This document shows positions 7,611 to 61,887 of a stretch of 64,000 nt of DNA, piece by piece (the stretch's first letter is position 1; each line of letters opens with the position of its first letter). Made by a program: the position numbers and the translations under genes. Under the pieces are notes generated by a model, which worked only from the letters and a program-made list of their open reading frames with translations, was not told the DNA's origin and ran no database searches. The stretch comes from Escherichia phage Ec_Makalu_001. Location of the stretch: sequence record MN894885.1; one strand, 5' to 3'.

Positions 7611-7787
7611 TTACATTAACAGCATTGTTTGCTCTACGAGTTGTTCTTGTTCTTCGCCGTTCGCATCTTCACTAATCGAACGTTCTGTTACTAGCTGTAA
7701 GCAGTAGCCAGTGTGAACAACGCCGTTTTCTGTCTGGACGGCTAACGCATCCTCGACAGGTTGTTTACAACAAATACAGATTTTCAT
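7611..7787 (-). CDS. Small Cys-rich protein (58 aa), not in the supplied ORF track; possible uvsY.-2 equivalent
   Basis: Own translation: MKICICCKQPVEDALAVQTENGVVHTGYCLQLV...; AGGAGG RBS 7 nt upstream; sits between uvsY and the terminator. Confidence 0.4.
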   Translation of the reverse strand: MKICICCKQPVEDALAVQTENGVVHTGYCLQLVTERSISEDANGEEQEQLVEQTMLLM

Positions 7788-7807
7788 AAAATTCCTCCTG
7801 CATGTAT

Positions 7808-8215
7808 TTAGCGACCAGATTCCAGCATACGCAATTCTATTGCATTCTTGATCGCAAAGCCACGAGATTTAACGATATCAAGTGCGCGACCAGCGAAATC
7901 CATTACCATCTGGTAATATGCAATTTTCGTATCAAGTGGTAAGATCTCGTCATCTGCTGCCATGACAACTTTCAATTCTGATTTCTCATACTCAGCGCGA
8001 CACCAGTCATCACTACGGTTAGTGTAAAAGTCAAGACGATTTTTCATAGCCTTTTTCTTTTTAGCCTCAAGAGCAATCGTCTCTCGCTTCGCCTCGCTGT
8101 AAATCCTTAACCACTTTGAGTATACTACCGGATTATTCAGCGCCTCCCATTGCAACTTAGTCGCATCGATCTTCATGTCAGCTTCTAATTGTTCTTTCAA
8201 ATCGTTTAGGTCCAT
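7808..8215 (-). CDS. uvsY: UvsY recombination mediator
   Basis: 135 aa; strong similarity to remembered T4 UvsY (KLQxEAxNN...YSKWL, C-terminal DxxKSRGFAIK). Confidence 0.88.
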   Translation of the reverse strand: MDLNDLKEQLEADMKIDATKLQWEALNNPVVYSKWLRIYSEAKRETIALEAKKKKAMKNRLDFYTNRSDDWCRAEYEKSELKVVMAADDEILPLDTKIAYYQMVMDFAGRALDIVKSRGFAIKNAIELRMLESGR

Positions 8216-8262
8216 AATATCCCCTTATTCACACTAAGACCTATATCATATCACACGCAAAA

Positions 8263-8661
8263 TCATTTTGCAAGTCTTATGCGTAGTTGTTCAAGATCAT
8301 CTGGGTTATCTATTACTGAAAAGTAGATTGATACTATGATTGAATTATCGTCGTACTGCGGAGTTACTTCTACTGTCAGGTTTCGGACCCGTGGTTCATA
8401 GTTTCGGATTGCCTCATTAATGTTTTTTGATAAGGTATCCACTGTCAGTGGGTTCATGTTCTCAAACAGTGATTTATTGAGGTCACATCCAAACAGTGGA
8501 TCAAATGGACGAGATCCCTTGCGAGTAGTCACGATCAGTAGAATAGAATCCTTAACCGCTTTAATTCCTATGTTCTTTTTAACGTCGTTATTCCACGATC
8601 TGGATATATTGAGATCCAAATCAGTATACATCTGATTAATTGTTGCCATGTTATACCTCAA
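8263..8661 (-). CDS. 25: Baseplate wedge protein gp25 (lysozyme-like fold)
   Basis: 132 aa; TTRKGSRPFDPxFGCDL and FSVIDNPDDxEQ motifs as in T4 gp25. Confidence 0.88.
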   Translation of the reverse strand: MRYNMATINQMYTDLDLNISRSWNNDVKKNIGIKAVKDSILLIVTTRKGSRPFDPLFGCDLNKSLFENMNPLTVDTLSKNINEAIRNYEPRVRNLTVEVTPQYDDNSIIVSIYFSVIDNPDDLEQLRIRLAK

Positions 8662-9287
8662 AGAATTTTAAGGAAACTGGATAGACCTGATAATGAATAT
8701 ACACCAGATTCCCCGCATTCGCATTTGATCGGTACTGCCAGCGTGATTTGATTTCTTGTTAGCTCGTCGATCACTTCTTCCACTTTATCCGTGGTAAGCA
8801 TATCCAACACGCGGTCAAAGTCCTGCGCGTTCAGGTCGTCTATATTGAATTGCTGATCGCCGATCACGATATATTCGATACATGCAATTACCATCTGCAT
8901 AATATCAACATCTTCTGTAAACTTAGGTTGACGAAACTTGATTTTTACTTGTCCTAAGTCTAGAATATACGGTTCGACTTCTGGTATCTGTGTGCGTGAA
9001 ACATCAAGAGAATATACTTTCTCTTTATTGCATACACCACACACCCAAGTAGCATCAATTTTCATCTTATTGAGGCTGTGACACCATAAGAGAAGAAAAA
9101 TATATTCTGCTTCGCATTTCTCTAGCTCTAATGCATTGATCCCCGTACATTCGTATATAATCTCTATAACAACATCTGACAGCTTGCCAGTCTCTTTTGC
9201 TGCTACCAGTTTTTGAAATTCGCCGAAGGTGAAAGCACGGGCGTGTATCAACTTTTCGCCTATTTGGATCTTGAAAAAGTATTGCAT
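8658..9287 (-). CDS. 26: Baseplate hub protein gp26
   Basis: 209 aa ORF coupled to gene 25 (overlapping stop/start); starts MQYFF as T4 gp26; CxxC pairs; synteny. Confidence 0.55.
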   Translation of the reverse strand: MQYFFKIQIGEKLIHARAFTFGEFQKLVAAKETGKLSDVVIEIIYECTGINALELEKCEAEYIFLLLWCHSLNKMKIDATWVCGVCNKEKVYSLDVSRTQIPEVEPYILDLGQVKIKFRQPKFTEDVDIMQMVIACIEYIVIGDQQFNIDDLNAQDFDRVLDMLTTDKVEEVIDELTRNQITLAVPIKCECGESGVYSLSGLSSFLKIL

Positions 9288-9329
9288 AATAAAACACCCT
9301 TTATAAACACATAGAATTATTTAGTATTT

Positions 9330-9337
9330 TATAAATA
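9330..9337 (+). promoter_or_regulatory. T4-type late promoter motif TATAAATA upstream of gene 51
   Basis: Exact TATAAATA 21 bp upstream of the gene 51 ATG. Confidence 0.4.
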
Positions 9338-9357
9338 CCCGAAAGGGGGATTATACC

Positions 9358-16871: not shown

Positions 16872-18923
16872 TTACATTTTAAATTTATCCGGCATAGCGT
16901 CTACAGACACAAGATCAGCGATAAGCTGACGTAGAGTTGCCTTATCTGCTTTCTTACGTTCGGTTTTAGCTTCGGTAATGAAGCTGGAGAAAGACAGGTC
17001 AGAAGCAGGTTTAACAACACCTTCACGGATGAATGCATCACCGTCCGCGATCATCTCACCAGATTCTTGTAATGCTGCCAGTTCATTTTTGTTCATAATA
17101 TGTGCCTCGATGTAATAAGTTTCTTGTGAATCCGTCGATGCCGTAGCACGAGTTACCGTATCAAAGGATAACACAACACCGCGAGGAAGTAAAATCTCGC
17201 ATTCTTTGTAAGCAAATGCTTTGTTACCTACTGGCAATACAGGGATGTTTTCCGCGCCAGCAATGGAGAAAGCAACATTAGCGCCACCTTCACCGCGAGA
17301 TCCAGCCATAGAATCAACACCAGCAACGGCACTAGCCACGTTTGCATTCCATCCACCAAAAATATTAGGTGCAAGGGAAGTGCTCACATAGTTTTTAAAG
17401 TAAAACGCTTTTTGCTTACGTGCAGTTTCCCACATTTGAGAACGGAAGTCCATACCACGATACAAGATAGTACCTGGATCAAGTTTAACACCATAGTTAG
17501 CAAATGCGTTATCCAGTGCATCACACATCTTGACCAATTCTTCTGGGTCTGCGATGCCTTCAAACTCTTCCAGCTTACGGTCGGTTAGGAAGTTGTTCAT
17601 ATTGATGTATGCTGCATCCGCATATTCGCTCAACACAAAACCTTCCGCGCCAGGCAGATCAAGATCAATATCTGCCATCATTTCACCCATGTTGCTAGCA
17701 ATTGCTTCAAACATACCGGAAGCAACATTACGCAGGGCATCGGTTTTAATCTGCGTGATGTGACTACGCAGCATTTCAGCTTTTACATCTGCTGGCATAG
17801 ACTGGTCGACGCGATCCATTGCTAGGGCGGTGATCTTGTTTTCAAACACTTCTTCATTCATGATTTCTTTTAAGCGTTTGATTGATGCTGCGATAACTTC
17901 CGCAGACAACGGATCATATTGATCCTGAACTTTTACCAGTTCGCTTACTGCGTATTTTGCATCGGCTTCGCTTTCAAAAATAGTACGCATGAAACCATAG
18001 CGAGTGATAATATCACTTGTCCAGTCATTCAGAGAACGGGCGGTTGAACGTTCTAAGGCTTGACGGTCAATCAGAGTATTAAACTGTTTCTTAGGTTCTG
18101 CTTCGGTGATATCTTCTTCCGGTTTAAGATTAATTTTTTCTGGATGATTCACATAGTCGCTGTTATAGGTCGCTTGAGTTTTCAGCATTTCTTCTTTAGT
18201 CAAACGAGATTTAGCCGCTACGCGTTGTTCTGCTTCCGCGTTTCGTTCTTCTTCTGACACAAGACTAGCCGCATACGCCTCATCTTTAGTCAGAGATTCA
18301 CCAGTAGCCTTAGATACCCAGCGATCACCTAAATCACTTTCTACTTTAGTGAACAGGGATTCATCGAGTTTAATCCCTTTAATCTTATCAATCGCCATCC
18401 CGCGACGTTTGACAACAACTAAAGCGATCTTTTTGCTGGTCATTACTTCCTGCTGGAATACTTCAAACTTCGGTGTACGACGCACCAAACGCTCTATAAC
18501 GCGCTTAACCAGTTCGGTCTTACCTTTCATGCGGGATACGTTAAAACGGAACATAACAGCGTCTAATTGCGCTTTACGGGCTGTTTCCATAACCACATCA
18601 AAAGCACTTGACATAACTGCAATTGGGTTATCTCCTAGACCATTTTTAAGCTGTACAATACGACCGCTTTTGTTCATTTCGCACAGTACAACATGTGCGG
18701 TCTTGTCACCCATACGAATGATTTTAGGTGTTTTGTTGGTGAAGTTACAAAGACGGACAATCACATCTTTATCGCGTGTCTGTACTGCAAAAAGCTGTTT
18801 AGGATTCTGCTTAGGCTTTAAGCACTGTACCGGAGCAATACTGCCAAAGTTTTCTTCCTCTTCCGTCAACAGCCATTTCTCGAAAGATTCAATCATTAGA
18901 TCGTCGATTTCTAAGTTAAACAT
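16872..18923 (-). CDS. alt: Alt ADP-ribosyltransferase (head-packaged)
   Basis: 683 aa (T4 Alt is 682 aa); C-terminal ART signature ILYRG, YVSTS, ECEILLPRG; synteny after gene 54. Confidence 0.75.
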   Translation of the reverse strand: MFNLEIDDLMIESFEKWLLTEEEENFGSIAPVQCLKPKQNPKQLFAVQTRDKDVIVRLCNFTNKTPKIIRMGDKTAHVVLCEMNKSGRIVQLKNGLGDNPIAVMSSAFDVVMETARKAQLDAVMFRFNVSRMKGKTELVKRVIERLVRRTPKFEVFQQEVMTSKKIALVVVKRRGMAIDKIKGIKLDESLFTKVESDLGDRWVSKATGESLTKDEAYAASLVSEEERNAEAEQRVAAKSRLTKEEMLKTQATYNSDYVNHPEKINLKPEEDITEAEPKKQFNTLIDRQALERSTARSLNDWTSDIITRYGFMRTIFESEADAKYAVSELVKVQDQYDPLSAEVIAASIKRLKEIMNEEVFENKITALAMDRVDQSMPADVKAEMLRSHITQIKTDALRNVASGMFEAIASNMGEMMADIDLDLPGAEGFVLSEYADAAYINMNNFLTDRKLEEFEGIADPEELVKMCDALDNAFANYGVKLDPGTILYRGMDFRSQMWETARKQKAFYFKNYVSTSLAPNIFGGWNANVASAVAGVDSMAGSRGEGGANVAFSIAGAENIPVLPVGNKAFAYKECEILLPRGVVLSFDTVTRATASTDSQETYYIEAHIMNKNELAALQESGEMIADGDAFIREGVVKPASDLSFSSFITEAKTERKKADKATLRQLIADLVSVDAMPDKFKM

Positions 18924-18964
18924 TTTATATCCTCTAGTTGATAACCTATAAACCTATATTTATG

Positions 18965-18985
18965 AAAAAGGGGCTTAACGCCCCC
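18965..18985 (-). terminator. Rho-independent terminator (minus strand); same hairpin recurs at 22987-23006
   Basis: Hairpin ggggc-gttaa-gcccc followed by U-run on minus strand. Confidence 0.5.
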
Positions 18986-18990
18986 ATTTA

Positions 18991-19203
18991 TTATAATGCA
19001 CCATCGAGCAATTGCTCTAAGGTGTATCCTGAATAGTCTTTTTCAATCAGGATATATTTTCCTACTCGTTTAATACAACCGCGCATTTCAACGTATTCTG
19101 CGTAGTTGATGGTGCGAGTTGTTCCATCTTCTAGTAAAGCAGTACCGATTTCGTTAATGCGGTCATAAGTTACGTCGGTAATGATGATTTCGATGTTAGC
19201 CAT
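18991..19203 (-). CDS. Hypothetical small protein (70 aa)
   Basis: ORF preceded by cassette promoter and GGAG RBS. Confidence 0.45.
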   Translation of the reverse strand: MANIEIIITDVTYDRINEIGTALLEDGTTRTINYAEYVEMRGCIKRVGKYILIEKDYSGYTLEQLLDGAL

Positions 19204-19239
19204 TTGATACTCCTTAGTAGTTCGTTTCGGTATGGGTGT

Positions 19240-19268
19240 ATTATGATATACACCCTCTGTTATGTCAA
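19240..19268 (-). promoter_or_regulatory. Sigma70-like early promoter (PeSL-type cassette)
   Basis: Minus strand: TTGACA, 17-bp spacer, CATAAT; conserved leader with GGAG RBS follows. Confidence 0.55.
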
Positions 19269-19274
19269 CAACTT

Positions 19275-19453
19275 TTAGAACATTTTTGAAATTAATTCTG
19301 CTTTGATTTCGCAGAGAACATCTAAAGATTTCTCGTCACCCGCTTTTGCTGCTTCTGCTTGCATTTTTGAAATGGCTTCAATGTCAGTGCAATTATAAGC
19401 CGCTTGAACTTTAGCGATTGCGATGATTGCCGATTCGATGGTTAAGTGTTTCA
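19275..19453 (-). CDS. Small protein (58 aa), not in supplied ORF track
   Basis: Own translation MKHLTIESAIIAIAKVQAAYNCTDIEA...; preceded by cassette promoter and GGAGAATCAAAC leader. Confidence 0.4.
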
Positions 19454-19486
19454 TGTTTGATTCTCCTTTCGTTTCGGTATGTGTGC

Positions 19487-19515
19487 AGTACAGGGGATCG
19501 CCGATCCCCTGTCAA
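19487..19515 (-). promoter_or_regulatory. Sigma70-like early promoter with palindromic GATC-containing spacer
   Basis: Minus strand: TTGACA, spacer GGGGATCGGCGATCCCC (17 bp, inverted repeat, two GATC), -10-like hexamer. Confidence 0.5.
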
Positions 19516-19522
19516 CAACTTT

Positions 19523-20041
19523 TTAGTTATTTTTTAATTGCTCATCTTGCAATAGGGCAATCACATGCTGGCGATGTTCTTCCGATTGAGGAACACCGAA
19601 AAAGTTTGTTTTGTAGAAATACTCTAATCGGTCTTCTCGTGTGCTCTCTTCCATCATGATCGCGGGTAGTCCGAGATTTCGGAAACGTCGCTTTTCTGCT
19701 GGCGTAAAATCACTGTAATACAACATAGAATCATCATTACCAGCAATGCTAAACTCATCCTTCATAAAGGAGAATATTGCGTTTAAACGCTGTTTACCGT
19801 CCACGATTTCGATCTCATAGCGAGAGCCATCATCAATCTTAGCCATTGCGATAGCACCAACCGGAAAATCATTAATCAGGTTTTCGATAAACATACGTTT
19901 GTTTTCGGTGTCCCATACCAAAGGACGCTGATAATCTGGGTTCATGTTGATATAGCCATCTTCTAACCACGCCTCATAAACAGAGATGACAAAGTTTTTA
20001 GTATTGGTATAGTAACGGCGTTTAGGCGTTAAACGGTTCAT
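19523..20041 (-). CDS. DUF262 / ParB-like nuclease-domain protein
   Basis: About 172 aa from the internal ATG at 20041 (GGAG RBS; the longer track ORF to 20077 would overlap the upstream gene); motifs DYQRPLVWD and VDGKQRL match the DGQQR signature of the DUF262 ParB/Srx-fold domain; last gene of a coupled 5-gene operon. Confidence 0.5.
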   Translation of the reverse strand: MNRLTPKRRYYTNTKNFVISVYEAWLEDGYINMNPDYQRPLVWDTENKRMFIENLINDFPVGAIAMAKIDDGSRYEIEIVDGKQRLNAIFSFMKDEFSIAGNDDSMLYYSDFTPAEKRRFRNLGLPAIMMEESTREDRLEYFYKTNFFGVPQSEEHRQHVIALLQDEQLKNN

Positions 20042-20042
20042 G

Positions 20043-20375
20043 TTATAGTCTCCTGAATGGATCATCACGTAAATCAATATCTTTTAAGAACTCATCCCAT
20101 GAATGGCGGATATTGTTCTTAATTCTCCAGATAAGCGCAGGGATTGAACGCTCTCCCATCTGGAAGTAAGGATCATATGATCCATATGCCCAATATGCTA
20201 CTACAATTCCACAATCGGCGCAATAATATTCTATTTCACTTGCTGGCGACCAAAGTCCATCAATATGATCACGGATCTTGCTTTCGATGTTATGGCTATG
20301 GCAATCAGGGCAACGGATGCAATGACCTTGTTTATCGTAATTTGACGTTAGCGAATACTTAAACAATCTCATCAT
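20043..20375 (-). CDS. Zinc-ribbon protein
   Basis: 110 aa; CIRCPDCHSH and YYCADCG Cys clusters; ATGA overlap with upstream gene. Confidence 0.45.
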   Translation of the reverse strand: MMRLFKYSLTSNYDKQGHCIRCPDCHSHNIESKIRDHIDGLWSPASEIEYYCADCGIVVAYWAYGSYDPYFQMGERSIPALIWRIKNNIRHSWDEFLKDIDLRDDPFRRL

Positions 20376-21088: not shown

Positions 21089-21330
21089 ATACGCCCCTTT
21101 AACCCAACACAGATTTTAGAAGGTTCTTTGCCGTGCCACATTAAGTAAATTCCGTTAATGCGTCCTTGTTTTGTATATGATTCTTTTCTGATCTTCTTAT
21201 AGTGTCGTGCTTCCTCAGCCGATTGTTTAGAATGTCGATCATAAAGGAAGAGGAACAAAGGCCAACCATTAGCGGCCTTAATGCAGTTATTCAAAAATTC
21301 CTTATTTCGTTTAATTAATTTTCTTTTCAC
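21085..21330 (-). CDS. Hypothetical protein (81 aa)
   Basis: ORF translationally coupled on both sides (ATGA overlaps). Confidence 0.4.
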   Translation of the reverse strand: MKRKLIKRNKEFLNNCIKAANGWPLFLFLYDRHSKQSAEEARHYKKIRKESYTKQGRINGIYLMWHGKEPSKICVGLKGRI

Positions 21331-21578: not shown

Positions 21579-21618
21579 TGTTTGATTCTCCTAAGTGGTA
21601 TCTCGTCTTGATGGTTGT

Positions 21619-21647: not shown

Positions 21648-21661
21648 CACTTTTTATAAAA

Positions 21662-21829
21662 TTATTTGTTAATTTCTGGTGCGTTGCTAGGATAGTAACC
21701 TTCTTTAACTCCGAGGTATTTCGCAACCATCCCTACAATCTTCTGTGCTACTACAATGTCAAATTTCAGATAATCTTCGCCGTGGGTTTCAATGATATAT
21801 GCTTCACATGCTGCTTTAGTCTCGAACAT
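21662..21829 (-). CDS. Small protein (55 aa), paralogue of 24945..25112; not in supplied ORF track
   Basis: Own translation MFETKAACEAYIIETHGEDYLKFDIVVAQK...; nucleotide sequence ~85% identical to the 24945-25112 copy; cassette promoter upstream. Confidence 0.5.
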   Translation of the reverse strand: MFETKAACEAYIIETHGEDYLKFDIVVAQKIVGMVAKYLGVKEGYYPSNAPEINK

Positions 21830-21862
21830 TTTGATTCTCCTATTTCGTTTCGGTATGTGTGT

Positions 21863-21891
21863 ATTATAGGGGATCTCCCGATCCCCGTCAA
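21863..21891 (-). promoter_or_regulatory. Sigma70-like early promoter with palindromic GATC-containing spacer
   Basis: Minus strand: TTGACG, spacer GGGATCGGGAGATCCCC, TATAAT. Confidence 0.55.
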
Positions 21892-21905
21892 CAACTTTTT
21901 TAAAA

Positions 21906-22187: not shown

Positions 22188-22220
22188 TTTTGATTCTCCA
22201 GTTCGTTTCGGTATGGGTGT

Positions 22221-22249: not shown

Positions 22250-22257
22250 CAACTTTT

Positions 22258-22653: not shown

Positions 22654-22962
22654 TCATTTAGGCAAATAATCATTCAGTGCAATCCGGTCGGCATGTTCCG
22701 GCGTTACATCAATCGCAATCACTTTAACGCGTGCTTTCTTGCGACCTGGGTTTTCTCGTAACCAGTGCTCATGACCGTGAACATTTTTATACTGCGATGC
22801 TTCTTCGAAGGTACGGATCGGACCAGGGTAATCAGCGTAAAGGATCTCTAGGTCATCGGTGATGTAAAAATATACGTTGTAATTACTGTTCTCTAGCTTA
22901 AGCAGAGACTTTCGGAACATTGGGAGATTTTCGCGGGTAAATTCAAAAGTAATATCTTTCAT
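22654..22962 (-). CDS. Paralogue family A member 1 (HxHW...AIDV motif protein)
   Basis: About 102 aa from the internal ATG at 22962 (GAGGA RBS); motifs YFYITDDLEILYADY, HGHEHW, KVIAIDV shared with five neighbouring ORFs. Confidence 0.5.
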   Translation of the reverse strand: MKDITFEFTRENLPMFRKSLLKLENSNYNVYFYITDDLEILYADYPGPIRTFEEASQYKNVHGHEHWLRENPGRKKARVKVIAIDVTPEHADRIALNDYLPK

Positions 22963-22986: not shown

Positions 22987-23006
22987 AAAAGGGGGCTTAA
23001 CGCCCC
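22987..23006 (-). terminator. Rho-independent terminator (minus strand), duplicate of the 18965-18985 hairpin
   Basis: Same ggggcgttaagcccc hairpin plus U-run. Confidence 0.45.
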
Positions 23007-23382: not shown

Positions 23383-23676
23383 TTATAAAATAATTTTTTG
23401 ATATTTTTCTATGATGTTTGTGTAATCCACATCAACCGCTATCACCGTTGCTTCGAATCCACCGTTTAGCCAATGGCTATGGTCATGATCGTGAAAGAAA
23501 CCAAGACCAGTACGAAGACCTTCTTTATATTCGGCGCGTACATTTAGATCATCATCGATAAACAGATAAAACCATGAATTTTTACTAGGATTGATGATAC
23601 AACCTTTCAGATTAGGGAGAATATCACGACTAAGAATAAACTTATCACCTACTTTGAACATAATATTAGTCCTCAC
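23383..23676 (-). CDS. Paralogue family A member 2
   Basis: 97 aa; FYLFIDDDLNVRAEY, HDHDHSHW, VIAVDV. Confidence 0.5.
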   Translation of the reverse strand: MRTNIMFKVGDKFILSRDILPNLKGCIINPSKNSWFYLFIDDDLNVRAEYKEGLRTGLGFFHDHDHSHWLNGGFEATVIAVDVDYTNIIEKYQKIIL

Positions 23677-23989
23677 TTATAAGGTCAAACCAATTGTTTT
23701 TCGCATAATGCTTAATGCGTGCTTGATCTGCTTCCGCTGGTGATAGATTCCATGCAACCACTACAACTTCTGACGCGTCGTCATCCGTTTCTGATACCCA
23801 ATGATTGTGATTCATACAGTTATTTGCGATCGAGTGAGCAAATGATTTCATCACTGGAGACGTATAATCATAGTAACGGATTTTCAGATTTTCATCAACA
23901 TACAAGTAGATCGTATAAGGTTTATATTCAGTAACCAGTAACAGACAGTTACGCAATTCTGGGAAAATCTTTTTAGTTAATTTCATTTT
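23666..23989 (-). CDS. Paralogue family A member 3
   Basis: About 107 aa from the internal ATG at 23989 (GAGGA RBS); YLYVDENLKIRYYDY, NHNHW, VVVVAWN. Confidence 0.45.
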   Translation of the reverse strand, partial: KMKLTKKIFPELRNCLLLVTEYKPYTIYLYVDENLKIRYYDYTSPVMKSFAHSIANNCMNHNHWVSETDDDASEVVVVAWNLSPAEADQARIKHYAKNNWFDLISED

Positions 23990-24206
23990 ATAATCCTCGG
24001 TCGCGGCTATAGTACACGGTACGCCATACAATTTCATGTTTCGTGTCGCTCCAGCACACGATCTCATTTACTCTTAAATCTTTGTTATCAACAAAAGATG
24101 AACATTGTGACGCTTCTTTCATCATTTTATCTGCTGTTTTCTCATCAAATACAGCACAGATTTCTTTATACACTCGATAATCTTTGAATTGACTCTGGAT
24201 ACCCAT
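23988..24206 (-). CDS. Paralogue family C member 2
   Basis: QSQFKDYRVYKEICAVFDEKTADKMMKEASQCSSF shared with 24166..24423; start uncertain (overlaps neighbour). Confidence 0.35.
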   Translation of the reverse strand: MGIQSQFKDYRVYKEICAVFDEKTADKMMKEASQCSSFVDNKDLRVNEIVCWSDTKHEIVWRTVYYSRDRGL

Positions 24207-24423
24207 AATTAACACCATTCCAACCAATTGTTTTTGAGAAAACGTTTATCCACTGTTGAGTGTAGCATGTTTCTTTCCATGATACAATACGAGTAGAATA
24301 ATGGTTTTTGTTTCCAGAAAAGGACGGGCATTTTGATGCATCTTCCATCATCTTTTCGGCGAACTCCGCGTCATATACCCGCAGGATCTGTTGATATGCT
24401 TTATAATCTTTAAATTTGCTCAT
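24166..24423 (-). CDS. Paralogue family C member 1
   Basis: 85 aa; SKFKDYKAYQQILRVYDAEFAEKMMEDASKCPSF. Confidence 0.4.
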   Translation of the reverse strand: MSKFKDYKAYQQILRVYDAEFAEKMMEDASKCPSFSGNKNHYSTRIVSWKETCYTQQWINVFSKTIGWNGVNYGYPESIQRLSSV

Positions 24424-24688
24424 AATTGTTAACTACCTTATCAGCTTCTTTTATTGTTTTTACATCAACTGCGATAATCCGTAAAGGTTCGTCGAAGGTC
24501 CACCAGTGGTCATGAATATCAGCTTGTGATTTATCACCAAAGGAATCACGAATATCATTTTTACATTTATAGCTAATATGGCCTTCATAGTCAACATAAA
24601 GGTAATTATCGAAAATCGGCGTTTTTAAGATCATACCGAAAAATCTTTCTTTGTGTGTCTTATCCAGTGTTGCAGTAATTCGCATCAT
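24410..24688 (-). CDS. Paralogue family A member 4
   Basis: 92 aa; YLYVDYEGHISY, HDHWW, IIAVDV. Confidence 0.5.
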   Translation of the reverse strand: MMRITATLDKTHKERFFGMILKTPIFDNYLYVDYEGHISYKCKNDIRDSFGDKSQADIHDHWWTFDEPLRIIAVDVKTIKEADKVVNNYEQI

Positions 24689-24700
24689 AATATATTCCTC

Positions 24701-24880
24701 TTAGAAAGGGATGGTCATTTCTTGAGCTTGTACATTCTCGTTAGGATTAAACTTCATCCAACCGATATTGTCTACCAGCATATGTACATTTTTATCATAT
24801 CCTACGTGAGTAGTCAACACTAAATGTGCTTTGCCTTCAACGATGATTTCCATGTACTTCTGAACTTCGATAGCTTTCAT
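24701..24880 (-). CDS. Small protein (59 aa), not in supplied ORF track
   Basis: Own translation MKAIEVQKYMEIIVEGKAHLVLTTHVGYDKNVHMLV...; GGAGAATCAAA leader and cassette promoter upstream. Confidence 0.4.
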   Translation of the reverse strand: MKAIEVQKYMEIIVEGKAHLVLTTHVGYDKNVHMLVDNIGWMKFNPNENVQAQEMTIPF

Positions 24881-24912
24881 TTTGATTCTCCGTTTGTTTT
24901 CTTGATGGGAGT

Positions 24913-24941
24913 ATCTTACTACTCCCTTTAATCATTGTCAA
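24913..24941 (-). promoter_or_regulatory. Sigma70-like early promoter (cassette; 20-bp palindrome GGGAGTAGTAAGATACTCCC spans -10)
   Basis: Minus strand: TTGACA, 17 bp, TAAGAT. Confidence 0.45.
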
Positions 24942-24944
24942 CTA

Positions 24945-25112
24945 TTATTTGTTAATTTCTGGTGCGTTGCTCGGATAGTAACCTTCTTTAACACCCAGAT
25001 ATTTTGCAACCATTCCGGTGATCTTCTGTGCTACTACGATATCGAATTTCAGGTAGTCTTCACCGTGGTTTGCTACAATGTATGCTTCGCATTCTGCTTT
25101 AGTCTCGAACAT
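24945..25112 (-). CDS. Small protein (55 aa), paralogue of 21662..21829
   Basis: Track ORF 24945..25178 trimmed to the ATG at 25112, which follows the cassette promoter and RBS; MFETKAECEAYIVANHGEDYLKFDIVVAQK... Confidence 0.5.
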   Translation of the reverse strand: MFETKAECEAYIVANHGEDYLKFDIVVAQKITGMVAKYLGVKEGYYPSNAPEINK

Positions 25113-25180: not shown

Positions 25181-25474
25181 TTATAATGCTTTATACGCGT
25201 ATTTCATAAATTTGTCTGCCACTTCATTGGCATGTTCAGATTCTACGCCTGATTCGAGAACAATAGCTAGGTCGGTTTCGTCATTCCCGCCGTACCAATG
25301 ATTTGATGTTCGATTTTTTTCAATTGGAAATTGGTCACTTTTATCTGTGCGACAAAATACATCTAAATGCTCGTCGATGTAAAAGATCCAATCTTCATAA
25401 AGAATAACGGTATTAGCAAGATTTTTATTGCCTTCAACGAAAGGTTCCGCGACAAATAGCTTAGTTTGTTCCAT
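25181..25474 (-). CDS. Paralogue family A member 5
   Basis: About 97 aa from the internal ATG at 25474 (GAGGA RBS); ILYEDWIFYIDEHLDVF, SNHWYGG, AIVLESG. Confidence 0.45.
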   Translation of the reverse strand: MEQTKLFVAEPFVEGNKNLANTVILYEDWIFYIDEHLDVFCRTDKSDQFPIEKNRTSNHWYGGNDETDLAIVLESGVESEHANEVADKFMKYAYKAL

Positions 25475-26077: not shown

Positions 26078-26257
26078 TTACATAACAATCACGCCAGCCG
26101 TTGAAAGTTGATGTTTCAACTGAGCATTTTCTGCTACCGTCAAATCAATGATTTCTTGTGACGCTGCAATCATATATCCATTGGTGATATTGTTTTGCAT
26201 CAGTTCAATGGTCTCTTCGTTGTAGCGGATTTTAGCGATGATTTCGTTGAAGTTCAT
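26078..26257 (-). CDS. Small protein (59 aa), not in supplied ORF track
   Basis: Own translation MNFNEIIAKIRYNEETIELMQNNITNGYMIAASQ...; cassette promoter and GGAGAATCAAAC leader. Confidence 0.4.
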   Translation of the reverse strand: MNFNEIIAKIRYNEETIELMQNNITNGYMIAASQEIIDLTVAENAQLKHQLSTAGVIVM

Positions 26258-26291
26258 GTTTGATTCTCCTAGTTCGTTTCGGTATGTGTGT

Positions 26292-26321
26292 ATTATAGGG
26301 GAGTTTAACCTCCCCTGTCAA
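26292..26321 (-). promoter_or_regulatory. Sigma70-like early promoter with palindromic spacer
   Basis: Minus strand: TTGACA, spacer GGGGAGGTTAAACTCCCC (18 bp), TATAAT. Confidence 0.5.
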
Positions 26322-26329
26322 CAACTTTT

Positions 26330-26641
26330 TTAAAGTTTTTCCATGATAACGGTCATAATTACATCTTCTGCGCGAGCGGTCAGATTATCAGCGTCAGTAT
26401 GTGGGCGGTTGGTTGTTACAGAGATAACACCGTTGCGCACTGGTTTGATATTGATATCAAGATGATCCGCGAAACGTTCGCCAGTTACAGAATGAATTTT
26501 GGTGTTAAATTCTTTTGCCAGTGCCTTGCGAACTTCACGAATCAGGATAGCGTTTTTCAGTTGGTTCTCCGCGCTCATGGTCTTCTGAGTGTTCATGGTT
26601 CCGTCGAAGTCAATCATTGGCAGCGTTACGATGTATTTCAT
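26330..26641 (-). CDS. Paralogue family B member 2
   Basis: 103 aa; shares NAILIREVRKALAKEFN region with 23012..23299. Confidence 0.45.
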   Translation of the reverse strand: MKYIVTLPMIDFDGTMNTQKTMSAENQLKNAILIREVRKALAKEFNTKIHSVTGERFADHLDINIKPVRNGVISVTTNRPHTDADNLTARAEDVIMTVIMEKL

Positions 26642-28700: not shown

Positions 28701-29160
28701 CTCGTTTTGTTAAACGTTCACGAATATCGTTTAGGATACTACAAAATTCCGATTCGGTCAATATGGTCTTTAACGGATCAGTTCCACCTATGCTATGACG
28801 CAATTTCTTATTTCCGGTAGCGAGCAATGCTTTACAAAAATCTGGGTTATTTCGTGCCATCGTAACAAATGCCAGATGTACCAGTCTGTAATAATGCTCA
28901 CTCATTCGATGAATCGGGCGACCCTGAAAATATAGCATGTGATTCTCTATCTTTTCAGTCCTTCCGGTTCTTTTTGCTTTGCAGCCGTGCATCAAAAAGA
29001 TTTCTCTTTGTCTCTGAGGGTTCTTAAATCTTAGCCCCTGTAAAAATCCTTCTGTGCTGTTAATATCGCAACCAAATAGACGGAATGGCCTTTTATTGAA
29101 ATTACTCAACTCGCCAGATGGATAAGGTCCACCCGCATAGATATCAATTTCAGAAGTCAT
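28681..29160 (-). CDS. Hypothetical protein (30.x position)
   Basis: 159 aa ORF coupled to the ligase start; no recognised motif. Confidence 0.45.
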   Translation of the reverse strand: MTSEIDIYAGGPYPSGELSNFNKRPFRLFGCDINSTEGFLQGLRFKNPQRQREIFLMHGCKAKRTGRTEKIENHMLYFQGRPIHRMSEHYYRLVHLAFVTMARNNPDFCKALLATGNKKLRHSIGGTDPLKTILTESEFCSILNDIRERLTKRGENVNS

Positions 29161-29359
29161 TGAAACTAATCTCGCTAATCAGAGAGAACGGATCATAATC
29201 GTCATGAGGAATATCGATAGTAATCGAGTGAGGATTTACCCATACACCAAACTGGTCTTCTTCGGTGAATACTTCGGTATGGATTTCGTGGATGTTTACA
29301 TTCATAGTTTTCATAATAAAAATTCCTTAATAATCAATAACTTACAAAATCATATAGCC

Positions 29360-34510: not shown

Positions 34511-34797
34511 CTTGATACTCCTTAGTTGTTTTGGGATGGGAGTATCTTACTACTCCCGTGATATGCTGTCAACTGCTTTTTTATGCAACCGCAAACATCA
34601 ACATTTGAACATTCTTGGCTGTCTGGCTTTCAAAGTTCTGACATTCTTTGATAATGTCCTCTACTTTCTCGCCGGAGATCTCCGCGTAAGTTTCGATTGC
34701 CATTTTCAGTACCGCGTCAAAGTTGTTCATTTGATTCTCCTTAAAGTGTATTTCGTTTCGATGGGGGTATATTACTACCCCCGTTTCATGCTGTCAA

Positions 34798-35016
34798 CTA
34801 CTTTTTAATGACAAGTTCGAATTTTGCTACCTTGCGTCCTCGTTTATTGAAAGCAACCCACGGACGGTTTTCAATGTAGAACAATTCTTCGCCAATAATG
34901 AATACTGGCTGATTGTAAAGGCGACCCATCAGGTCACGCTGGCGAATGGTATTAGATTCGTATACTTCGCCTACTACAAAGTGCTTGCTGATAGAGTCGG
35001 TGCAAGTAAATTTCAT
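34798..35016 (-). CDS. Paralogue family D member
   Basis: 72 aa; MKFTCTD...FVVGEVYE...VAKFELVIKK shared with 37394..37561 and 63252..63458. Confidence 0.45.
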   Translation of the reverse strand: MKFTCTDSISKHFVVGEVYESNTIRQRDLMGRLYNQPVFIIGEELFYIENRPWVAFNKRGRKVAKFELVIKK

Positions 35017-37038: not shown

Positions 37039-37393
37039 TAATTCACCTCACTATCACTTTTTAATACAAAAGAACTTAGTATTTCTGTTTATGTCTCTAT
37101 CCTGTTGCAATTCCTGCATGGCTTCAAAACAACTTTGATGTGATGAAAACTCTACGCTGGTAACAGTTCCTTTATTATATACCCCGACACTAACGGAAAG
37201 CAATAACCATAATGTAGCCATTAGTTCACCTTCTGCTTTTCAATGCAATACAGATTCATAAAGCGTTTATTGTCTTCGCGGATAATCTCGCGAGCTTTAA
37301 CGCAATCCTGCTTTGTTGCAAACTCAATGCTTGACATATTTCCGTAATTATACATTGAATTGCTTATTGCAATCAATAACCATACAGTAGCCA

Positions 37394-37561
37394 TTATCCG
37401 ACAACCTCAAAACATTTATCATCAGGAAGAATAGCCCATTCTACGCCGTATTCATCCTTAACGTAGTAGCAAGTCCCATCATGTCGAGCATCATATTCAT
37501 CACCGACAACAAAGCTATCAGCTAGCTCAAAATCTACAGCAACACATTTTAATTTTGCCAT
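37394..37561 (-). CDS. Paralogue family D member (55 aa)
   Basis: Track ORF trimmed to the ATG at 37561, which follows promoter and RBS; MAKLKCVAVDFELADSFVVGDEYD... . Confidence 0.45.
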   Translation of the reverse strand: MAKLKCVAVDFELADSFVVGDEYDARHDGTCYYVKDEYGVEWAILPDDKCFEVVG

Positions 37562-43135: not shown

Positions 43136-44314
43136 TTACGCTGTCAACTCTTTTTCAAAAGATTTTACGATATACATGATAGTGCTCAATTCAGACGGCG
43201 CTACTGTTTCGGTGTAGCCATCCGGCATATCTTCTTTCGAGATATAGGAAGTCTTGCCTTTCATCGCTTCCTTGATCTTGTTCTCTAATTCTAAGATCTT
43301 TTGACCGTCTTGTAAAGTCAATTCATAAAAGATCTCGTGACCGAACTTTGAAACACGAGATTGGTTTCTCATGCGCTCATGTGTTTCTTTGTTTGTTATT
43401 CCAAATTTCACGCCAACAAAGGAATCATTGTTGGTTAATTTCTGTATATAAAGAGTTCCTGTCTTTAATGCCTGATAACCATGCTTAGAACACAACGGGC
43501 AGCGTGTTCCGCGATTAACAAAATTATCAATAGTTACATCCCATTCATGGTTACGTTCGCATGTCAGAAGTATTCTTGTTAATGCACCTTTCCACTTTCC
43601 TGAAATCCCAATAAATTTTAGTCTGTTGGTTTCGCATATTTTTTCAATTTGTTTTAATCGGTCACTTTTTGTTATTGGTGCTGTTCCGCTACATTTGCGA
43701 CACCGACGACCTAGTTTGAACTTATCATAACTTTGTTCGTAAATGTGATTATTAGGACACTCAAATTTAAGTTTAGTTTTTGTTCCTCTCCATTCCCCAA
43801 TTATACCCAAAAATTTATAATCTCCTTTATTTTCATTTATATAAGATAAGGAATCTTCTTTATCATGCATCTTGCCCCCGTTACATAAAGGACATCTTGT
43901 TTTTTGATGAATGAAATCTGTATATGTTGGTTGGTATGTGTGTCCGTTTGTACAGTTCATAATGAGTCTTGTTCTGCTATTTTTATACTCCCCACCAACA
44001 AAACCAACAAATACATCGTTTGTTTCTTGTTTTATTCTTTCTATCACATTGTTTGGGTTTAATCTTTGAGAATCAACCACACATTTCTTACACGAAACTT
44101 TTTTCCTGATATTTGCTAGAGTTGATGTGTATTCATGCTTGTTATTACATAATATAAGAGCTTTTGTTTTGAGACCAGACCATTCTCCAACAAACCCCAT
44201 GAAAGAATAACCAACTTCCAAACATGAATTTTTTACAACATTTTCCCAATAGAAGGGAGTTTTCGTGTTTCCTTTTATTTCTATACGAATCTCATGTGCT
44301 TGACGTACTAACAT
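43136..44314 (-). CDS. Four-repeat zinc-ribbon protein with C-terminal GIY-YIG-like region
   Basis: Four ~45-aa repeats of pattern F(V/I)G(F/I)xGxWxGxxTxLxxxCxxxHxYxxxxxxFxxxxxC(x2)C; C-terminal LYIQKL...VKFGIT...R...E loosely GIY-YIG-like; start taken at the ATG at 44314 after promoter and RBS. Confidence 0.45.
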   Translation of the reverse strand: MLVRQAHEIRIEIKGNTKTPFYWENVVKNSCLEVGYSFMGFVGEWSGLKTKALILCNNKHEYTSTLANIRKKVSCKKCVVDSQRLNPNNVIERIKQETNDVFVGFVGGEYKNSRTRLIMNCTNGHTYQPTYTDFIHQKTRCPLCNGGKMHDKEDSLSYINENKGDYKFLGIIGEWRGTKTKLKFECPNNHIYEQSYDKFKLGRRCRKCSGTAPITKSDRLKQIEKICETNRLKFIGISGKWKGALTRILLTCERNHEWDVTIDNFVNRGTRCPLCSKHGYQALKTGTLYIQKLTNNDSFVGVKFGITNKETHERMRNQSRVSKFGHEIFYELTLQDGQKILELENKIKEAMKGKTSYISKEDMPDGYTETVAPSELSTIMYIVKSFEKELTA

Positions 44315-44434: not shown

Positions 44435-45382
44435 TTACATCGCTAACAGAGAATCCAGGTCATCCAGATCAGAAGCGGAGGAAGTACCGCCACTCAGGTC
44501 CAGAGATGCCATCAGGTCATCAGCGGAAGAATCTAACGCCGTGCTAGCGGCGGTAGTACCAGCGTCGAATGCATTCATCTGTGCGTCAAAATCGTCAAGC
44601 TGGCTGTTAATCGCTGCCGCAGCACTGGAAGCCGCAGCACCAGCTACCATAGACACGCCCATAGTTTTCTTAAATTTGGTTTCCAGTTCGTCAAACGGTT
44701 TAAACTGGCTAGGTGCTACAATCTCACCCAAATCAACCATGTTTTCCATCAGATATTTCTGGTATGCTTCGTCTTCAATTTTCGGAAGCTGTGATTGCTG
44801 CATGAAACGAGAATCATCATAGTTCTGGTGTTTATCAACCTTCTTAGCTTTCAGGAGGAAGTTAGCGCCAGAGAACACACAAGTTACATCTACCGGAACT
44901 TCGCCCATGTCGGTATTCACGTTCACCATCGCAACGATCTTATCATAAATTTTCTGACCGAAGCGGAATTTAAATACCTTGCCTTCGTTTTCTGGTGCTT
45001 GAGGATCTTTCAGTACCAGAATGTTTGCGTAGTAAGACGCTTTACGCTTAATCAGTTGCCATTCGGTTTTATCGGTATTGTACAAATCTTTTTCGTTAAT
45101 ATATTTGCACACAGGGCAAGAATCAAAATCACCGTGGGTGCTGGAGCAGTTTTCCCAATACCATTTTCCATTAACTTTGAAGGAATGGTTTACCAGTTTC
45201 ACAATCGGCAGACCGTCTTCTGTCTTAGACGGCAGGAAGCGAATCAGGGCTTCACCGTTACCTGCTGCATCAGTCTTAATCTTCCACTCTTTCGGGTCTT
45301 CTTTGGAGAAACCGTTGCCACCTTTCAGTGCGGCCAGTTGAGCTTGCAGTTTGGAAGAATCTTGGCGTTTAAACATATTCAC
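44435..45382 (-). CDS. 32: Single-stranded DNA-binding protein gp32
   Basis: 315 aa; LIRFLPSK, HxFxxNGKWY, zinc-binding Cys/His, [12 protein letters not shown], acidic C-terminal tail; as T4 gp32. Confidence 0.9.
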
Positions 45383-60018: not shown

Positions 60019-60387
60019 TCACTTAACAAAGATTTTCTTTAATGCTTTCAGGATCGTTGCTTCCGGCGCTTCTTCCGGTGGAGGAAGCAATTCTACCACT
60101 TCCTCTTCCAACTCGATATAGTCTACCAGATATTCTACATAGAATGCAAGTGCTTCCATGAAATTAGATGCTACATCCGATTCACCACAAGCGCCTACAT
60201 GCATTGTATAAACGTCACTGCGATCAAGTTTGTGGATGCTTCCCAGATAGTTCCGGTTATACCAGACTTCCCACACTTTCAGTTTTCCGGTTTTGGTTGC
60301 TGTCTTATAATCTGTTTCGTAGTGGTGCAGTTGACGTTGCAGATCATTGATAATAACACATTTTTCGTAATTGTTTTGAATTTCCAT
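60019..60387 (-). CDS. Hypothetical protein (122 aa)
   Basis: ORF with RBS. Confidence 0.4.
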   Translation of the reverse strand: MEIQNNYEKCVIINDLQRQLHHYETDYKTATKTGKLKVWEVWYNRNYLGSIHKLDRSDVYTMHVGACGESDVASNFMEALAFYVEYLVDYIELEEEVVELLPPPEEAPEATILKALKKIFVK

Positions 60388-60397
60388 GATGTAATCC

Positions 60398-60589
60398 TCA
60401 CTTATCGTTAAGAAGTTCTAAAACTTTCTGTCGTACTTTGTCAATATTAGTTGACTCAAATACTGTACGGTATCCACAACTTTGACCGTATGATCGAGAG
60501 CAATCCCCGTATCCCCATTGTTCAACCTGATAGTATTCAAGGAATGGGTGTTGCCGAACTATGATACCATCGCGATTAAAAATTACCAT
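60398..60589 (-). CDS. Hypothetical small protein (63 aa)
   Basis: ORF with GAGGA RBS. Confidence 0.35.
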   Translation of the reverse strand: MVIFNRDGIIVRQHPFLEYYQVEQWGYGDCSRSYGQSCGYRTVFESTNIDKVRQKVLELLNDK

Positions 60590-60612
60590 AATATAATCCT
60601 CACGTCAACAAA

Positions 60613-60891
60613 CTATTTTCGGTTATACTTCTGCCACTTTCGGTAATACTGCTTGTAATGTTGTTTAATGTTTGGCGGTTCGTCACTATACATGTTATCA
60701 ACCATCATGTCAATAAGACCCTCCGGTGTTTGATAGCTCCCCGCTCGAATAAGTTCCTTAATTAAAAGATCTTGCGTCGCTTTATACTCTACAATAACAA
60801 CTGTCTTTTCTGCCTTTCCAATTCCGATCCGGTCGTTAGCTCTCATAGCATCCCACCAGTCTTTTTTAAACTTCATGTTATTGAATTGCAT
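60613..60891 (-). CDS. Hypothetical protein (92 aa)
   Basis: ORF with RBS. Confidence 0.4.
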   Translation of the reverse strand: MQFNNMKFKKDWWDAMRANDRIGIGKAEKTVVIVEYKATQDLLIKELIRAGSYQTPEGLIDMMVDNMYSDEPPNIKQHYKQYYRKWQKYNRK

Positions 60892-60902
60892 AATTTAACC
60901 TC

Positions 60903-61661
60903 TTACTTGCAAACGTATTGATCTACATCAATTGCGCCACCGAATGTAGGATGACGTTTTTCAAATCGAATCGTTCCGTCGTTTGGTTCGAAAACGGAGT
61001 ATTCATATAGATCTTTCTTGCCAACATTCTTATAAAACCCGCCTTTAGTCATAACGGTTTCTTGTACGTTTGCTTTGTGTACATTGTATTCATCAATGTA
61101 CACAAAATCAACCATCTTCCCATTTTTAATAGTTACTTTAAGATCCCCTGGCTGGTTTCCATATTTTGCATACAGTGGAGATTCTTTAATTTTGGTGGAA
61201 ATTCCATCTTTCATACTCCACTCATAACGAACGGTGCATTGATAGGTAAAAGTTTCGACCTTCGGTTCTTCCACCACTTTTTCTTCCTGTTTCGGTTGTT
61301 CTTCTTCAATCTTCGCAGAAGTCTCTGAATCGCTTTCTGACGCGGTTTCTTCTTTAGGTAATACATTCATTAAGTTTTGGATTTGAGCGTTATATACAGC
61401 CTCCAGTGGCTGAATCTGCCCGATATTGATCATTGTATCACGAACAGTTTTATTCCAGTTGCGTTGCTCTTGTTTCAGAGACGGATCAATCTTAACAGCC
61501 TTAACATATACTTCATGAAGTTTAGAATCAAGTGCGGAGATTGACTCGTTAGCACAAATAAACTTCTCTGATTTGGTAGTAGCCTTAGTGCAATCAAAGG
61601 ACGCAGCATTAGCACCGATGGCAGTAGCAGAAAGAAAGATAGCAGCGATAATGTTTTTCAT
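60903..61661 (-). CDS. Secreted protein with LprI/DUF1311-like N-terminal domain
   Basis: 252 aa; signal peptide (MKNIIAAIFLSATAIGANA-AS); motif FDCTKATTKSEKFICANESISALDSKLHEVY matches the Cys-x-Cys-containing DUF1311 pattern; acidic linker and beta-rich C-terminal domain with a second Cys pair. Confidence 0.5.
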   Translation of the reverse strand: MKNIIAAIFLSATAIGANAASFDCTKATTKSEKFICANESISALDSKLHEVYVKAVKIDPSLKQEQRNWNKTVRDTMINIGQIQPLEAVYNAQIQNLMNVLPKEETASESDSETSAKIEEEQPKQEEKVVEEPKVETFTYQCTVRYEWSMKDGISTKIKESPLYAKYGNQPGDLKVTIKNGKMVDFVYIDEYNVHKANVQETVMTKGGFYKNVGKKDLYEYSVFEPNDGTIRFEKRHPTFGGAIDVDQYVCK

Positions 61662-61731
61662 AATATATTCCTCAATGTCTTGTCTTGATGGGAGTATCTT
61701 ACTACTCCCTTAATCCGGTGTCAACTACTTT

Positions 61732-61887
61732 TTAAATTTCTTCTACAGTAAAGTCTTCAATGTTGTTGTGCTCGGAGAACGTTGCCAGACCAGCATTCCA
61801 TGCATCATCCTCAGAGAAGAATACACCGTAACGTTCATATCCTTTAGCGCCTTCAAATTTAATCATTAATTTGTGAGTATGTTTCAT
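61732..61887 (-). CDS. Small protein (51 aa), not in supplied ORF track
   Basis: Own translation MKHTHKLMIKFEGAKGYERYGVFFSEDDAWNAG...; GGAGAATCAAA leader and cassette promoter upstream. Confidence 0.35.
   Translation of the reverse strand: MKHTHKLMIKFEGAKGYERYGVFFSEDDAWNAGLATFSEHNNIEDFTVEEI

Follow-up and report, generated by a model that had tools for sequence, protein, structure and literature searches.

A 64,000-nt stretch of Escherichia phage Ec_Makalu_001 DNA (sequence record MN894885.1; hereafter, the window) contains seven short open reading frames (ORFs) that are almost certainly genuine protein-coding genes of an RB49-like phage. Six of them lie on promoter-early stem-loop (PeSL) cassettes and the seventh is uvsY.-2. 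An earlier note on this DNA had listed them as probable genes of under 60 amino acids (aa) missing from the ORF track, a program-made list of the open reading frames of the window. They are real, conserved coding sequences (CDSs), omitted only through the 60-aa minimum of that track. All seven are found on the minus strand with an ATG start and a stop, but one coordinate had to be corrected: the ORF given as 19275..19453 (58 aa) exists and is 19275..19454 (59 aa), the end being off by one because the A of its ATG had been dropped. The list was also an undercount, since at least six more genes of this size are present in the window. The evidence comprises sequence anatomy, orthology, purifying selection, codon usage and cassette-precise insertions and deletions (indels), while the promoter and terminator activities of PeSLs (PMC2839356) and the fitness role of T4 uvsY.-2 (PMC11879866) are taken from the literature. 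Both the genes and their cassettes were already known, the genes since the 2003 annotation of RB49, their families from PHROGs and the cassettes from work published in 2010 and 2014.

The source of the window is identified by its sequence as an RB49-like T4-type coliphage of the genus Krischvirus (Straboviridae). The gene order runs from gene 24, hoc, uvsW, uvsY, the baseplate genes and alt through a hyperplastic region to ligase, nrd, td, frd, gene 32, the tail-fibre genes and a second hyperplastic region. Megablast searches against phage records matched 63 records with positions 18900-27300 and 411 with positions 28000-52000, and the full-length matches of both queries were Krischvirus in all cases. 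The nearest relative is Ec_Makalu_003 (99.5% and 98.3% identity over the two regions, respectively); RB49, Phi1 and JSE are 95-96% identical to the window. Relatives were drawn from GenBank phage records, and an IMG/VR scan anchored on Alt gave only two related loci.

The seven products match annotated RB49 CDSs at 96-100% aa identity, over 100% of their length and at syntenic positions. The ORF at 7611..7787 encodes a 58-aa homologue of RB49 uvsY.-2 (AAQ15406.1; 98% identical). The other six, also on the minus strand, encode early ORFans: 59 aa at 19275..19454 (RB49ORF186c, phrog_20811; 98% identical), 55 aa at 21662..21829 (RB49ORF191c, phrog_8009; 98%), 59 aa at 24701..24880 (RB49ORF204c, phrog_15082; 97%, with 10 of 10 orthologues intact), 59 aa at 26078..26257 (RB49ORF209c, phrog_14803; 100%), 49 aa at 34581..34730 (RB49ORF226c, phrog_21179; 100%) and 51 aa at 61732..61887 (RB49ORF261c, phrog_19699; 96%). 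Each of the seven products has an end-to-end PHROG match, to families without known function. Corresponding CDSs are annotated in the carriers among Makalu_003, Makalu_002, JSE, Phi1, phiS, kvi, ELT4, Aragogtheria, SAP, SSG23 and G37-3.

PeSLs were defined in the coliphages RB49 and phi1 (Arbiol, Comeau, Kutateladze, Adamia and Krisch 2010; PMC2839356) and were later described from further T4-like phages (Comeau et al. 2014; PMC4122927). Their published architecture consists of an upstream stop in an AT-rich tract, the sigma-70 -35 and -10 elements, a stem-loop, a Shine-Dalgarno (SD) sequence and the start of an ORFan, with the stem-loop occupying one of five positions (PMC2839356). A cassette promoter, a conserved leader and a start codon at the expected spacing had been claimed for all seven short ORFs. 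They are present before the ORFs starting at 19454, 21829, 24880, 26257, 34730 and 61887, but not before 7611..7787.

The six cassettes have a -35 of TTGACA/G and a spacer of 17-18 nt, followed by the -10 hexamer. The sigma-70 hexamers score 10-12 out of 12 in five of them; the sixth (19515) has a perfect -35 but TGTACT as its -10. The ATG follows the end of the -10 by 31-38 nt in the five cassettes scored and by a similar distance in the sixth. GC stem-loops of 7-10 bp (-13.7 to -19.7 kcal/mol, z = -2.3 to -4.0) lie in the -35/-10 spacer of the cassettes at 19515, 21891, 26321 and 61947, and overlap the -10 in those at 24941 and 34797. An A-rich run with an upstream TAA is found within ~15 nt of the -35 in all six. 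Likewise, the 10-mer GGAGAATCAA ends 0-2 nt before the ATG in every case, its GGAG core thus lying 6-8 nt from the start codon. The window has 15 copies of this 10-mer, each on the minus strand and directly ahead of an ATG, compared with 0.11 in shuffled sequences. Such an excess lies far above chance, and the cassette observation is accordingly real. In total, the minus strand of the window carries about 28 PeSL-type promoters.

Individually, the PeSL before 19454 spans 19455..19530 on the minus strand, with the -35 TTGACA at 19515-19510, the stem-loop in the spacer (hairpin of -19.7 kcal/mol, z = -4.0), the -10 TGTACT at 19492-19487 and GGAGAATCAA at 19466-19457. The PeSL before 21829 (21830..21905, minus strand) comprises TTGACG, 17 nt containing the stem-loop, TATAAT, the leader and GGAGAATCAA. 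A similar arrangement is seen before 61887 (61888..61961, minus strand), with TTGACA, 17 nt containing the stem-loop, TATACT, the leader and GGAGAATCAA. The stem-loop overlaps the -10 both before 24880 (24881..24955, minus strand; TAAGAT) and before 34730 (34731..34811, minus strand; TAATAT). Finally, the PeSL before 26257 (26258..26335, minus strand), which corresponds to PeSL210/209, has a promoter with 12/12 consensus positions and a spacer stem-loop.

As a check on the seven genes, the earlier note had pointed to reading-frame conservation and dN/dS in related phages, with a lack of conservation counting against them; the frames proved to be conserved and under purifying selection. Their distribution was determined by tblastn against 50,697 phage records. 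The uvsY.-2 gene was found in 1210 records, ORF186c in 43 (all Krischvirus-type, with a CDS annotated under each listed match), ORF191c in 65, ORF204c in 56, ORF209c in 55 (51 with an aa identity of at least 99%), ORF226c in 52 and ORF261c in 35. Among the matches listed from annotated records, a CDS lies under the match except in Henu6 (uvsY.-2) and vB_AsaM-56 (ORF226c); the former is an Acinetobacter phage, whose uvsY.-2 match has no annotated CDS. For all seven ORFs, every full-length orthologue extracted (3-10 per ORF) keeps the frame open and its length unchanged, save one copy in phage Whisky.

Selection was assessed by counting each variable site once among orthologues from 16 Krischvirus loci. 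The ratio of synonymous to non-synonymous changes was 3:1 for 7611..7787 (p = 0.029), 6:2 for 19275..19454 (p = 0.0014, omega 0.09), 7:2 for 21662..21829 (p = 4e-4), 6:7 for 24701..24880 (p = 0.022), 8:0 for 26078..26257 (p = 3e-6), 1:0 for 34581..34730 (not significant) and 10:4 for 61732..61887 (p = 3e-5, omega 0.09). The pooled counts for the seven ORFs are 41:16 (omega ~0.10, p = 2e-17), and six of the seven are individually significant at p < 0.05. A frame control on a smaller set gave 33:14 in frame, compared with 10:37 and 2:45 in the two shifted frames. As the shifted frames lack a synonymous excess, the selection signal is specific to the proposed frame.

Several points weigh against reading all seven as expressed and functional genes. 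The omega of the 24701 ORF is ~0.27, from 13 changes, and the 49-aa ORF shows a single substitution within the genus; since it is nearly invariant there, its support is taken from distant homologues. In phage Whisky (MZ504878.1, ~2470-2632), the copy of the 61732..61887 ORF is frameshifted after codon 21, which reflects either a sequencing error or a pseudogene; this counterpart is annotated only as a 99-bp CDS. The -10 at 19487-19492 (minus strand) is TGTACT in the window, in comparison with TATAAT in RB49, JSE and a metagenomic relative and TATACT in Makalu_003. The second base of the -10 is usually essential, and the A-to-G change at this base also lengthens the adjacent hairpin from ~8 to 10 bp. 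The cassette before 19454 may therefore be weak, a natural promoter-down variant. Each of the six ORFans is absent from part of the genus, and all are thus dispensable. A Pfam search found no family for any of the six, to which no function is assigned, and a search of the PDB with the predicted fold of ORF226c returned no significant match, the best being three-helix domains of UBA or AID type at E > 4. Finally, a literature search for ribosome-profiling, proteomic or transcript-mapping data on Krischvirus returned nothing relevant, so that we infer translation in this phage from the evidence given here.

These observations could be taken to mean that some cassette ORFs are decaying remnants, transcribed but non-functional in this phage, with 19275..19454 and 61732..61887 as candidates. 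The altered -10 before 19454 and the frameshifted Whisky copy would fit such decay, as would the presence of ORF186c, ORF204c, ORF209c, ORF226c and ORF261c in 43, 56, 55, 52 and 35 records, respectively, compared with the 63 records matching the 8.4-kb region. However, all seven frames are intact in the window with SD and start unchanged, omega is as low as 0.09 for both candidates, and the 19275..19454 protein is 100% identical to its Makalu_003 copy. Furthermore, read-through from upstream cassettes could still express the 19454 ORF. Decay is consequently considered improbable, and functional genes remain the preferred reading for these two ORFs as well.

Codon usage was scored as log-odds, with the long genes of the window as the training set and 52 ORFs of similar length as the null. 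The proposed frames score from +8 to +24, above all 52 null ORFs, and all other frames on both strands are negative. This result bears on the proposal that the short ORFs are open only by chance and lie in non-coding spacers, which would serve only as promoter/terminator arrays or encode leader RNAs. A base composition of 40% GC readily yields frames of 49-59 codons by chance (357 ORFs of at least 40 aa are present in the window), and six of the seven lack a Pfam family. Chance frames, however, would explain neither the frame-specific purifying selection nor the codon usage, and still less the strong SD 6-8 nt before each ATG, the intact frames of constant length in the 3-10 orthologues examined per ORF, the homologues of the same length in unrelated phages and the confident fold prediction for one of the ORFs (ORF226c). 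Frame-specific selection, codon usage, SD sequences and homologues thus already contradict this explanation, which is regarded as highly improbable.

Least credible of all is that overlapping plus-strand ORFs are the real genes and the minus-strand ORFs their shadows: such ORFs exist (34512..34808, 98 aa; 19423..19659, 78 aa; 24653..24823, 56 aa), one being longer than the minus-strand candidate, but they cross the conserved minus-strand PeSL promoters and stem-loops, start with TTG or GTG except for 19423..19659 (ATG), have antisense codon scores of -3.7 to -17.4 compared with +8 to +24 for the sense frames, show no cassette-type promoter on the plus strand of the scanned region, and lie where GC and AT skew and all flanking genes point to the minus strand, on which a CDS is called in every annotated relative examined. 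The plus-strand ORFs were accordingly rejected as genes on codon usage, promoter overlap and annotation.

With the minus-strand ORFs retained as genes, the six accessory early ORFans of the hyperplastic regions are each carried on a self-contained PeSL expression cassette. Such a cassette begins with an A-rich tract and a near-consensus sigma-70 promoter, to which are added, in order, a GC-rich stem-loop, a leader, a strong SD sequence and the short ORF, whose stop abuts the next cassette. It is proposed that host RNA polymerase fires the PeSL promoters immediately after infection, that the GC-rich stem-loop attenuates transcription arriving from upstream, and that the small products would thus be made as monocistronic units. 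Activities in keeping with this scheme come from the RB49/phi1 work, in which PeSL206/205 showed a promoter activity of ~13,000 Miller units and terminator activity was measured for PeSL211/210 (PMC2839356). The counterpart of PeSL206/205 in the window is the promoter at 25175, before 24945..25112. The six ORFans would most likely be small protein-binding modulators of host or phage proteins, made immediately after infection.

It has been described that neighbouring PeSLs recombine and excise ORF-containing mini-circles, the PeSL pair flanking ORF210 being one of the pairs studied in RB49 and phi1 (PMC2839356). The PeSLs of this pair correspond to window positions 26715 and 26321, the latter being the promoter of 26078..26257. 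Recombination between neighbouring PeSLs inserts and deletes whole units of cassette plus ORF, which accounts for the presence of each ORF in only some relatives. Comparison of window positions 34500-34830 shows that JSE and phiS lack exactly a 225-bp unit, which corresponds to one PeSL plus ORF226c. The junction PeSLs are chimeric in both phages, with the crossover in the stem-loop in JSE and in the A-rich/-35 part in phiS; these differing crossover points imply that PeSL x PeSL recombination happened independently at least twice at this one locus. The ORF186c unit and a block including ORF209c are also absent from phiS.

The seventh gene, 7611..7787, is uvsY.-2 and belongs to the Pfam family DUF2685 (PF10886). 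Its product matches PF10886 over residues 1-56 of 58 with 54.9 bits (cut-off 25), as well as phrog_1043 (E = 6e-20). The gene sits 20 nt after uvsY (7808..8215) with GGAGG six nt before its ATG, and upstream of it neither a strong minus-strand promoter nor a cassette was found. Downstream, an intrinsic terminator on the minus strand (7577..7559) has a stem of 8 bp, 6 of them GC pairs, and a T run after it. It is followed by uvsW.1 (7311..7547, plus strand), which is convergent with uvsY.-2. The uvsY.-2 gene is presumably co-transcribed with uvsY; it has its own ribosome-binding site and ends at this terminator. The T4-type late promoter TATAAATA was sought near uvsY and uvsY.-2 and found at neither; the window has five matches to it, located ahead of uvsW, gene 51, gene 31, gene 34 and gene 36, a count no higher than expected by chance.

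The layout of uvsY, uvsY.-2 and uvsW.1 is common to RB49, JSE, ime09, one Klebsiella phage and one Aeromonas phage, and ime09 has uvsY.-1 between uvsY and uvsY.-2. The uvsY.-2 gene is conserved across Tequatrovirus and the T4-like phages of Klebsiella, Aeromonas, Vibrio and Acinetobacter. In an alignment of six sequences from relatives at the genus level, C4, C7, H25 and C29 are invariant, and on this basis the protein probably carries a CxxC...HxxxC (C2HC) zinc knuckle followed by an acidic tail. These invariant cysteines explain the remark in the earlier note that the product is Cys-rich. An AlphaFold2 model of the protein, built from only four close homologues, reached a pLDDT of 56 and was not used for a fold search.

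Homologues of two ORFan families, of the same length, are found outside the Straboviridae. A 49-aa homologue of ORF226c in the unrelated phage CSP1C keeps length and frame at 62% aa identity, and another of ~50 aa (50% identity) occurs in the Aeromonas phage vB_AsaM-56 (genus Popoffvirus). In vB_AsaM-56 (NC_019527.1), this intact homologue at ~395-547 is unannotated, and gp31 starts downstream in another frame. The family is also present in a Cronobacter phage. A library of 1.8 billion proteins yielded 13 representative clusters of 48-75 aa, nine of them of 48-50 aa, and the pattern AI..Y...SG......EC..F.SQT..N...LM is conserved in the family. The AlphaFold2 model of ORF226c, built from the alignment of these homologues, is a three-helix bundle with a pLDDT of 92.5, for which a fold search of BFVD returned only uncharacterised phage proteins. 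Two leads were set aside: a 1182-aa match with nine repeats (P0007) was dismissed as spurious, being a low-complexity coiled-coil repeat protein, and the label "coproporphyrinogen III oxidase" on the CSP1C homologue was disregarded, since that enzyme cannot be a three-helix protein of 49 aa.

The second family is that of ORF191c/205c. The ORFs at 21662..21829 and 24945..25112 are paralogous (85% nt and 89% aa identity; 18 synonymous and 7 non-synonymous differences, Sd and Nd), each behind its own PeSL. A 51-aa homologue with 72% aa identity in the unrelated siphovirus vB_EcoS_swi2 (Swiduovirus) indicates that the small gene moved between phage families. It could be that PeSL mini-circles serve as the export vehicle of mini-protein genes; a search of the sequence preceding the swi2, CSP1C and Aeromonas phage 56 homologues found no PeSL-like promoter. 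That the cassette mini-proteins form an exchangeable host-interference or anti-defence arsenal moving between unrelated phage families is a speculative idea, and on balance an unlikely one.

The earlier note had also described nine ORFs of the track as over-extended at the 5' end, on the grounds that a promoter lies inside them. Over-extension relative to an SD-preceded ATG is found in all nine, but the internal promoter as its reason holds for six (those beginning at 24945, 37394, 43136, 62235, 62913 and 63252). The best SD-preceded ATG is the upper coordinate of each corrected interval given below, all on the minus strand. For 24945, 62235 and 62913, the TTG of the -35 TTGAC, or of the GTTGTTGACA run holding the -35, was taken as the start; the spurious start lies just upstream of the -35 in 37394, and in the promoter spacer in 43136 and 63252. 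The corrected genes are 24945..25112 (track end 25178; 55 aa, RB49ORF205c; PeSL at 25175), 37394..37561 (track end 37624; 55 aa, RB49ORF233c; promoter TTGACG-17-TATAAT at 37621), 43136..44314 (track end 44359; a 392-aa endonuclease-like protein; promoter at 44372), 62235..62477 (track end 62540, its TTG in the -35 TTGACG; 80 aa, Makalu002_262 with 243 bp), 62913..63185 (track end 63245, its TTG in the -35 TTGACA; 90 aa, equal in length to the 273-bp CDS of RB49, JSE, Phi1 and Makalu_002) and 63252..63458 (track end 63500, its TTG in the promoter spacer; 68 aa, Makalu002_266 with 207 bp).

The other three extensions hold no promoter. That of 22654..22962 (track end 23109; 102 aa, a 309-bp CDS in RB49 and Makalu_003) reaches back through an intrinsic terminator (23006..22992) into the 3' end of the upstream gene. 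The extension of 23666..23986 (track end 24067; 106 aa, RB49ORF200c with 321 bp) overlaps the upstream gene. In the case of 25181..25474 (track end 25531; 97 aa, RB49ORF206c with 294 bp), there is a lone TATAAT, which contains the upstream TAA stop and has no -35, and the scan reported no promoter-like site. Eight of the nine corrected lengths equal those of CDSs annotated in RB49, Makalu_003 or Makalu_002; the start at 44314 has no annotated counterpart of the same length among the records compared, RB49 ORF239c being longer and divergent (1458 bp). Length comparison with the CDSs of relatives suggests that several further track ORFs, among them 19523..20077, 23383..23676, 23988..24227, 44435..45382 and 62738..62923, are over-extended likewise.

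The product of 43136..44314 matches phrog_681 (endonuclease; E = 1e-99) and has repeated CapR/treble-clef zinc-finger domains. RB49ORF239c, at the same locus between frd and gene 32, shares only 47% identity with it in its C-terminal part, and in Makalu_003 the locus is empty. It appears to be a variable endonuclease locus that is probably mobile.

Six further genes of under 60 aa are annotated in relatives and intact in the window, all on the minus strand. Besides the corrected 24945..25112 and 37394..37561, these are 29150..29314 (54 aa, RB49ORF215c, phrog_15277), 37054..37221 (55 aa, ORF231c), 37221..37394 (57 aa, ORF232c) and 62738..62908 (56 aa, Makalu002_264, of the RB49ORF263c family; 61 aa from a TTG in the track). 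The window thus holds at least 13 annotated genes of under 60 aa. The equivalents of ORF231c and ORF232c, which lie between nrdA and nrdB, are tandem paralogues with 36% identity and represent a tandem mini-gene duplication. In JSE, a homing endonuclease occupies the corresponding interval (window 37054-37394). A 30-aa ORF at 41697-41789 (minus strand) is annotated only in Makalu_003 (Makalu003_236), to which it is 100% identical in the window; it has a codon score of -0.09 per codon and no clear SD, and its status as a gene is doubtful.

Elsewhere in the window, upstream of hoc (4545-4890, minus strand), the frame equivalent to RB49p168.2 is broken by a stop-carrying insertion, and a different 54-aa ORF (4726..4890) is open in its place. 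Plasticity is known for the hoc-proximal region.

These results matter mainly as quality control. A 60-aa cut-off combined with a rule that takes the first start after a stop misrepresents T4-type early regions, and many track ORFs in the window run at their 5' end into promoters, terminators or upstream genes. Furthermore, the cassettes show T4-type phages shuffling small accessory genes by a mechanism published in 2010, and uvsY.-2 is a gene conserved in more than 1200 phage genomes.

In comparison with T4, uvsY.-2 shares its position just after uvsY and convergent with uvsW.1, its length of ~55-58 aa, the invariant CxxC...HxxxC motif and an acidic C-terminus ending in ETxLL. The protein encoded in the window is ~43% identical to the T4-type protein and has two extra, non-conserved cysteines; T4 also has uvsY.-1 between uvsY and uvsY.-2, whereas this phage lacks it. 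A report from 2025 describes uvsY.-2 as important for T4 infection (PMC11879866).

The six ORFans can also be likened to the small immediate-early ORFs of the T4 hyperplastic regions, many of which encode host-takeover or host-interference proteins. Both are short, promoter-proximal, non-essential, variably present and transcribed with host sigma-70, although no sequence or fold link was found between the six ORFans and the characterised T4 early proteins. The closest comparison is with RB49 itself, whose ORFans 186c, 191c/205c, 204c, 209c, 226c and 261c (GenBank AY343333) have the same length, order and flanking genes as those in the window, point substitutions being the only difference.

Finally, RB49 and phi1 carry 51-52 PeSLs per genome, most of them in hyperplastic regions (PMC2839356). 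The PeSLs described here belong to the same genus and occupy orthologous loci, with the same order of elements, the same concentration in hyperplastic regions and the same cassette-precise indels. No substantive difference separates them from those of RB49 and phi1, apart from the one point change in a -10 (TGTACT) and a cassette set of this phage's own, which is phi1-like between ORF191 and ORF193 and Makalu-like at 62-63.5 kb.

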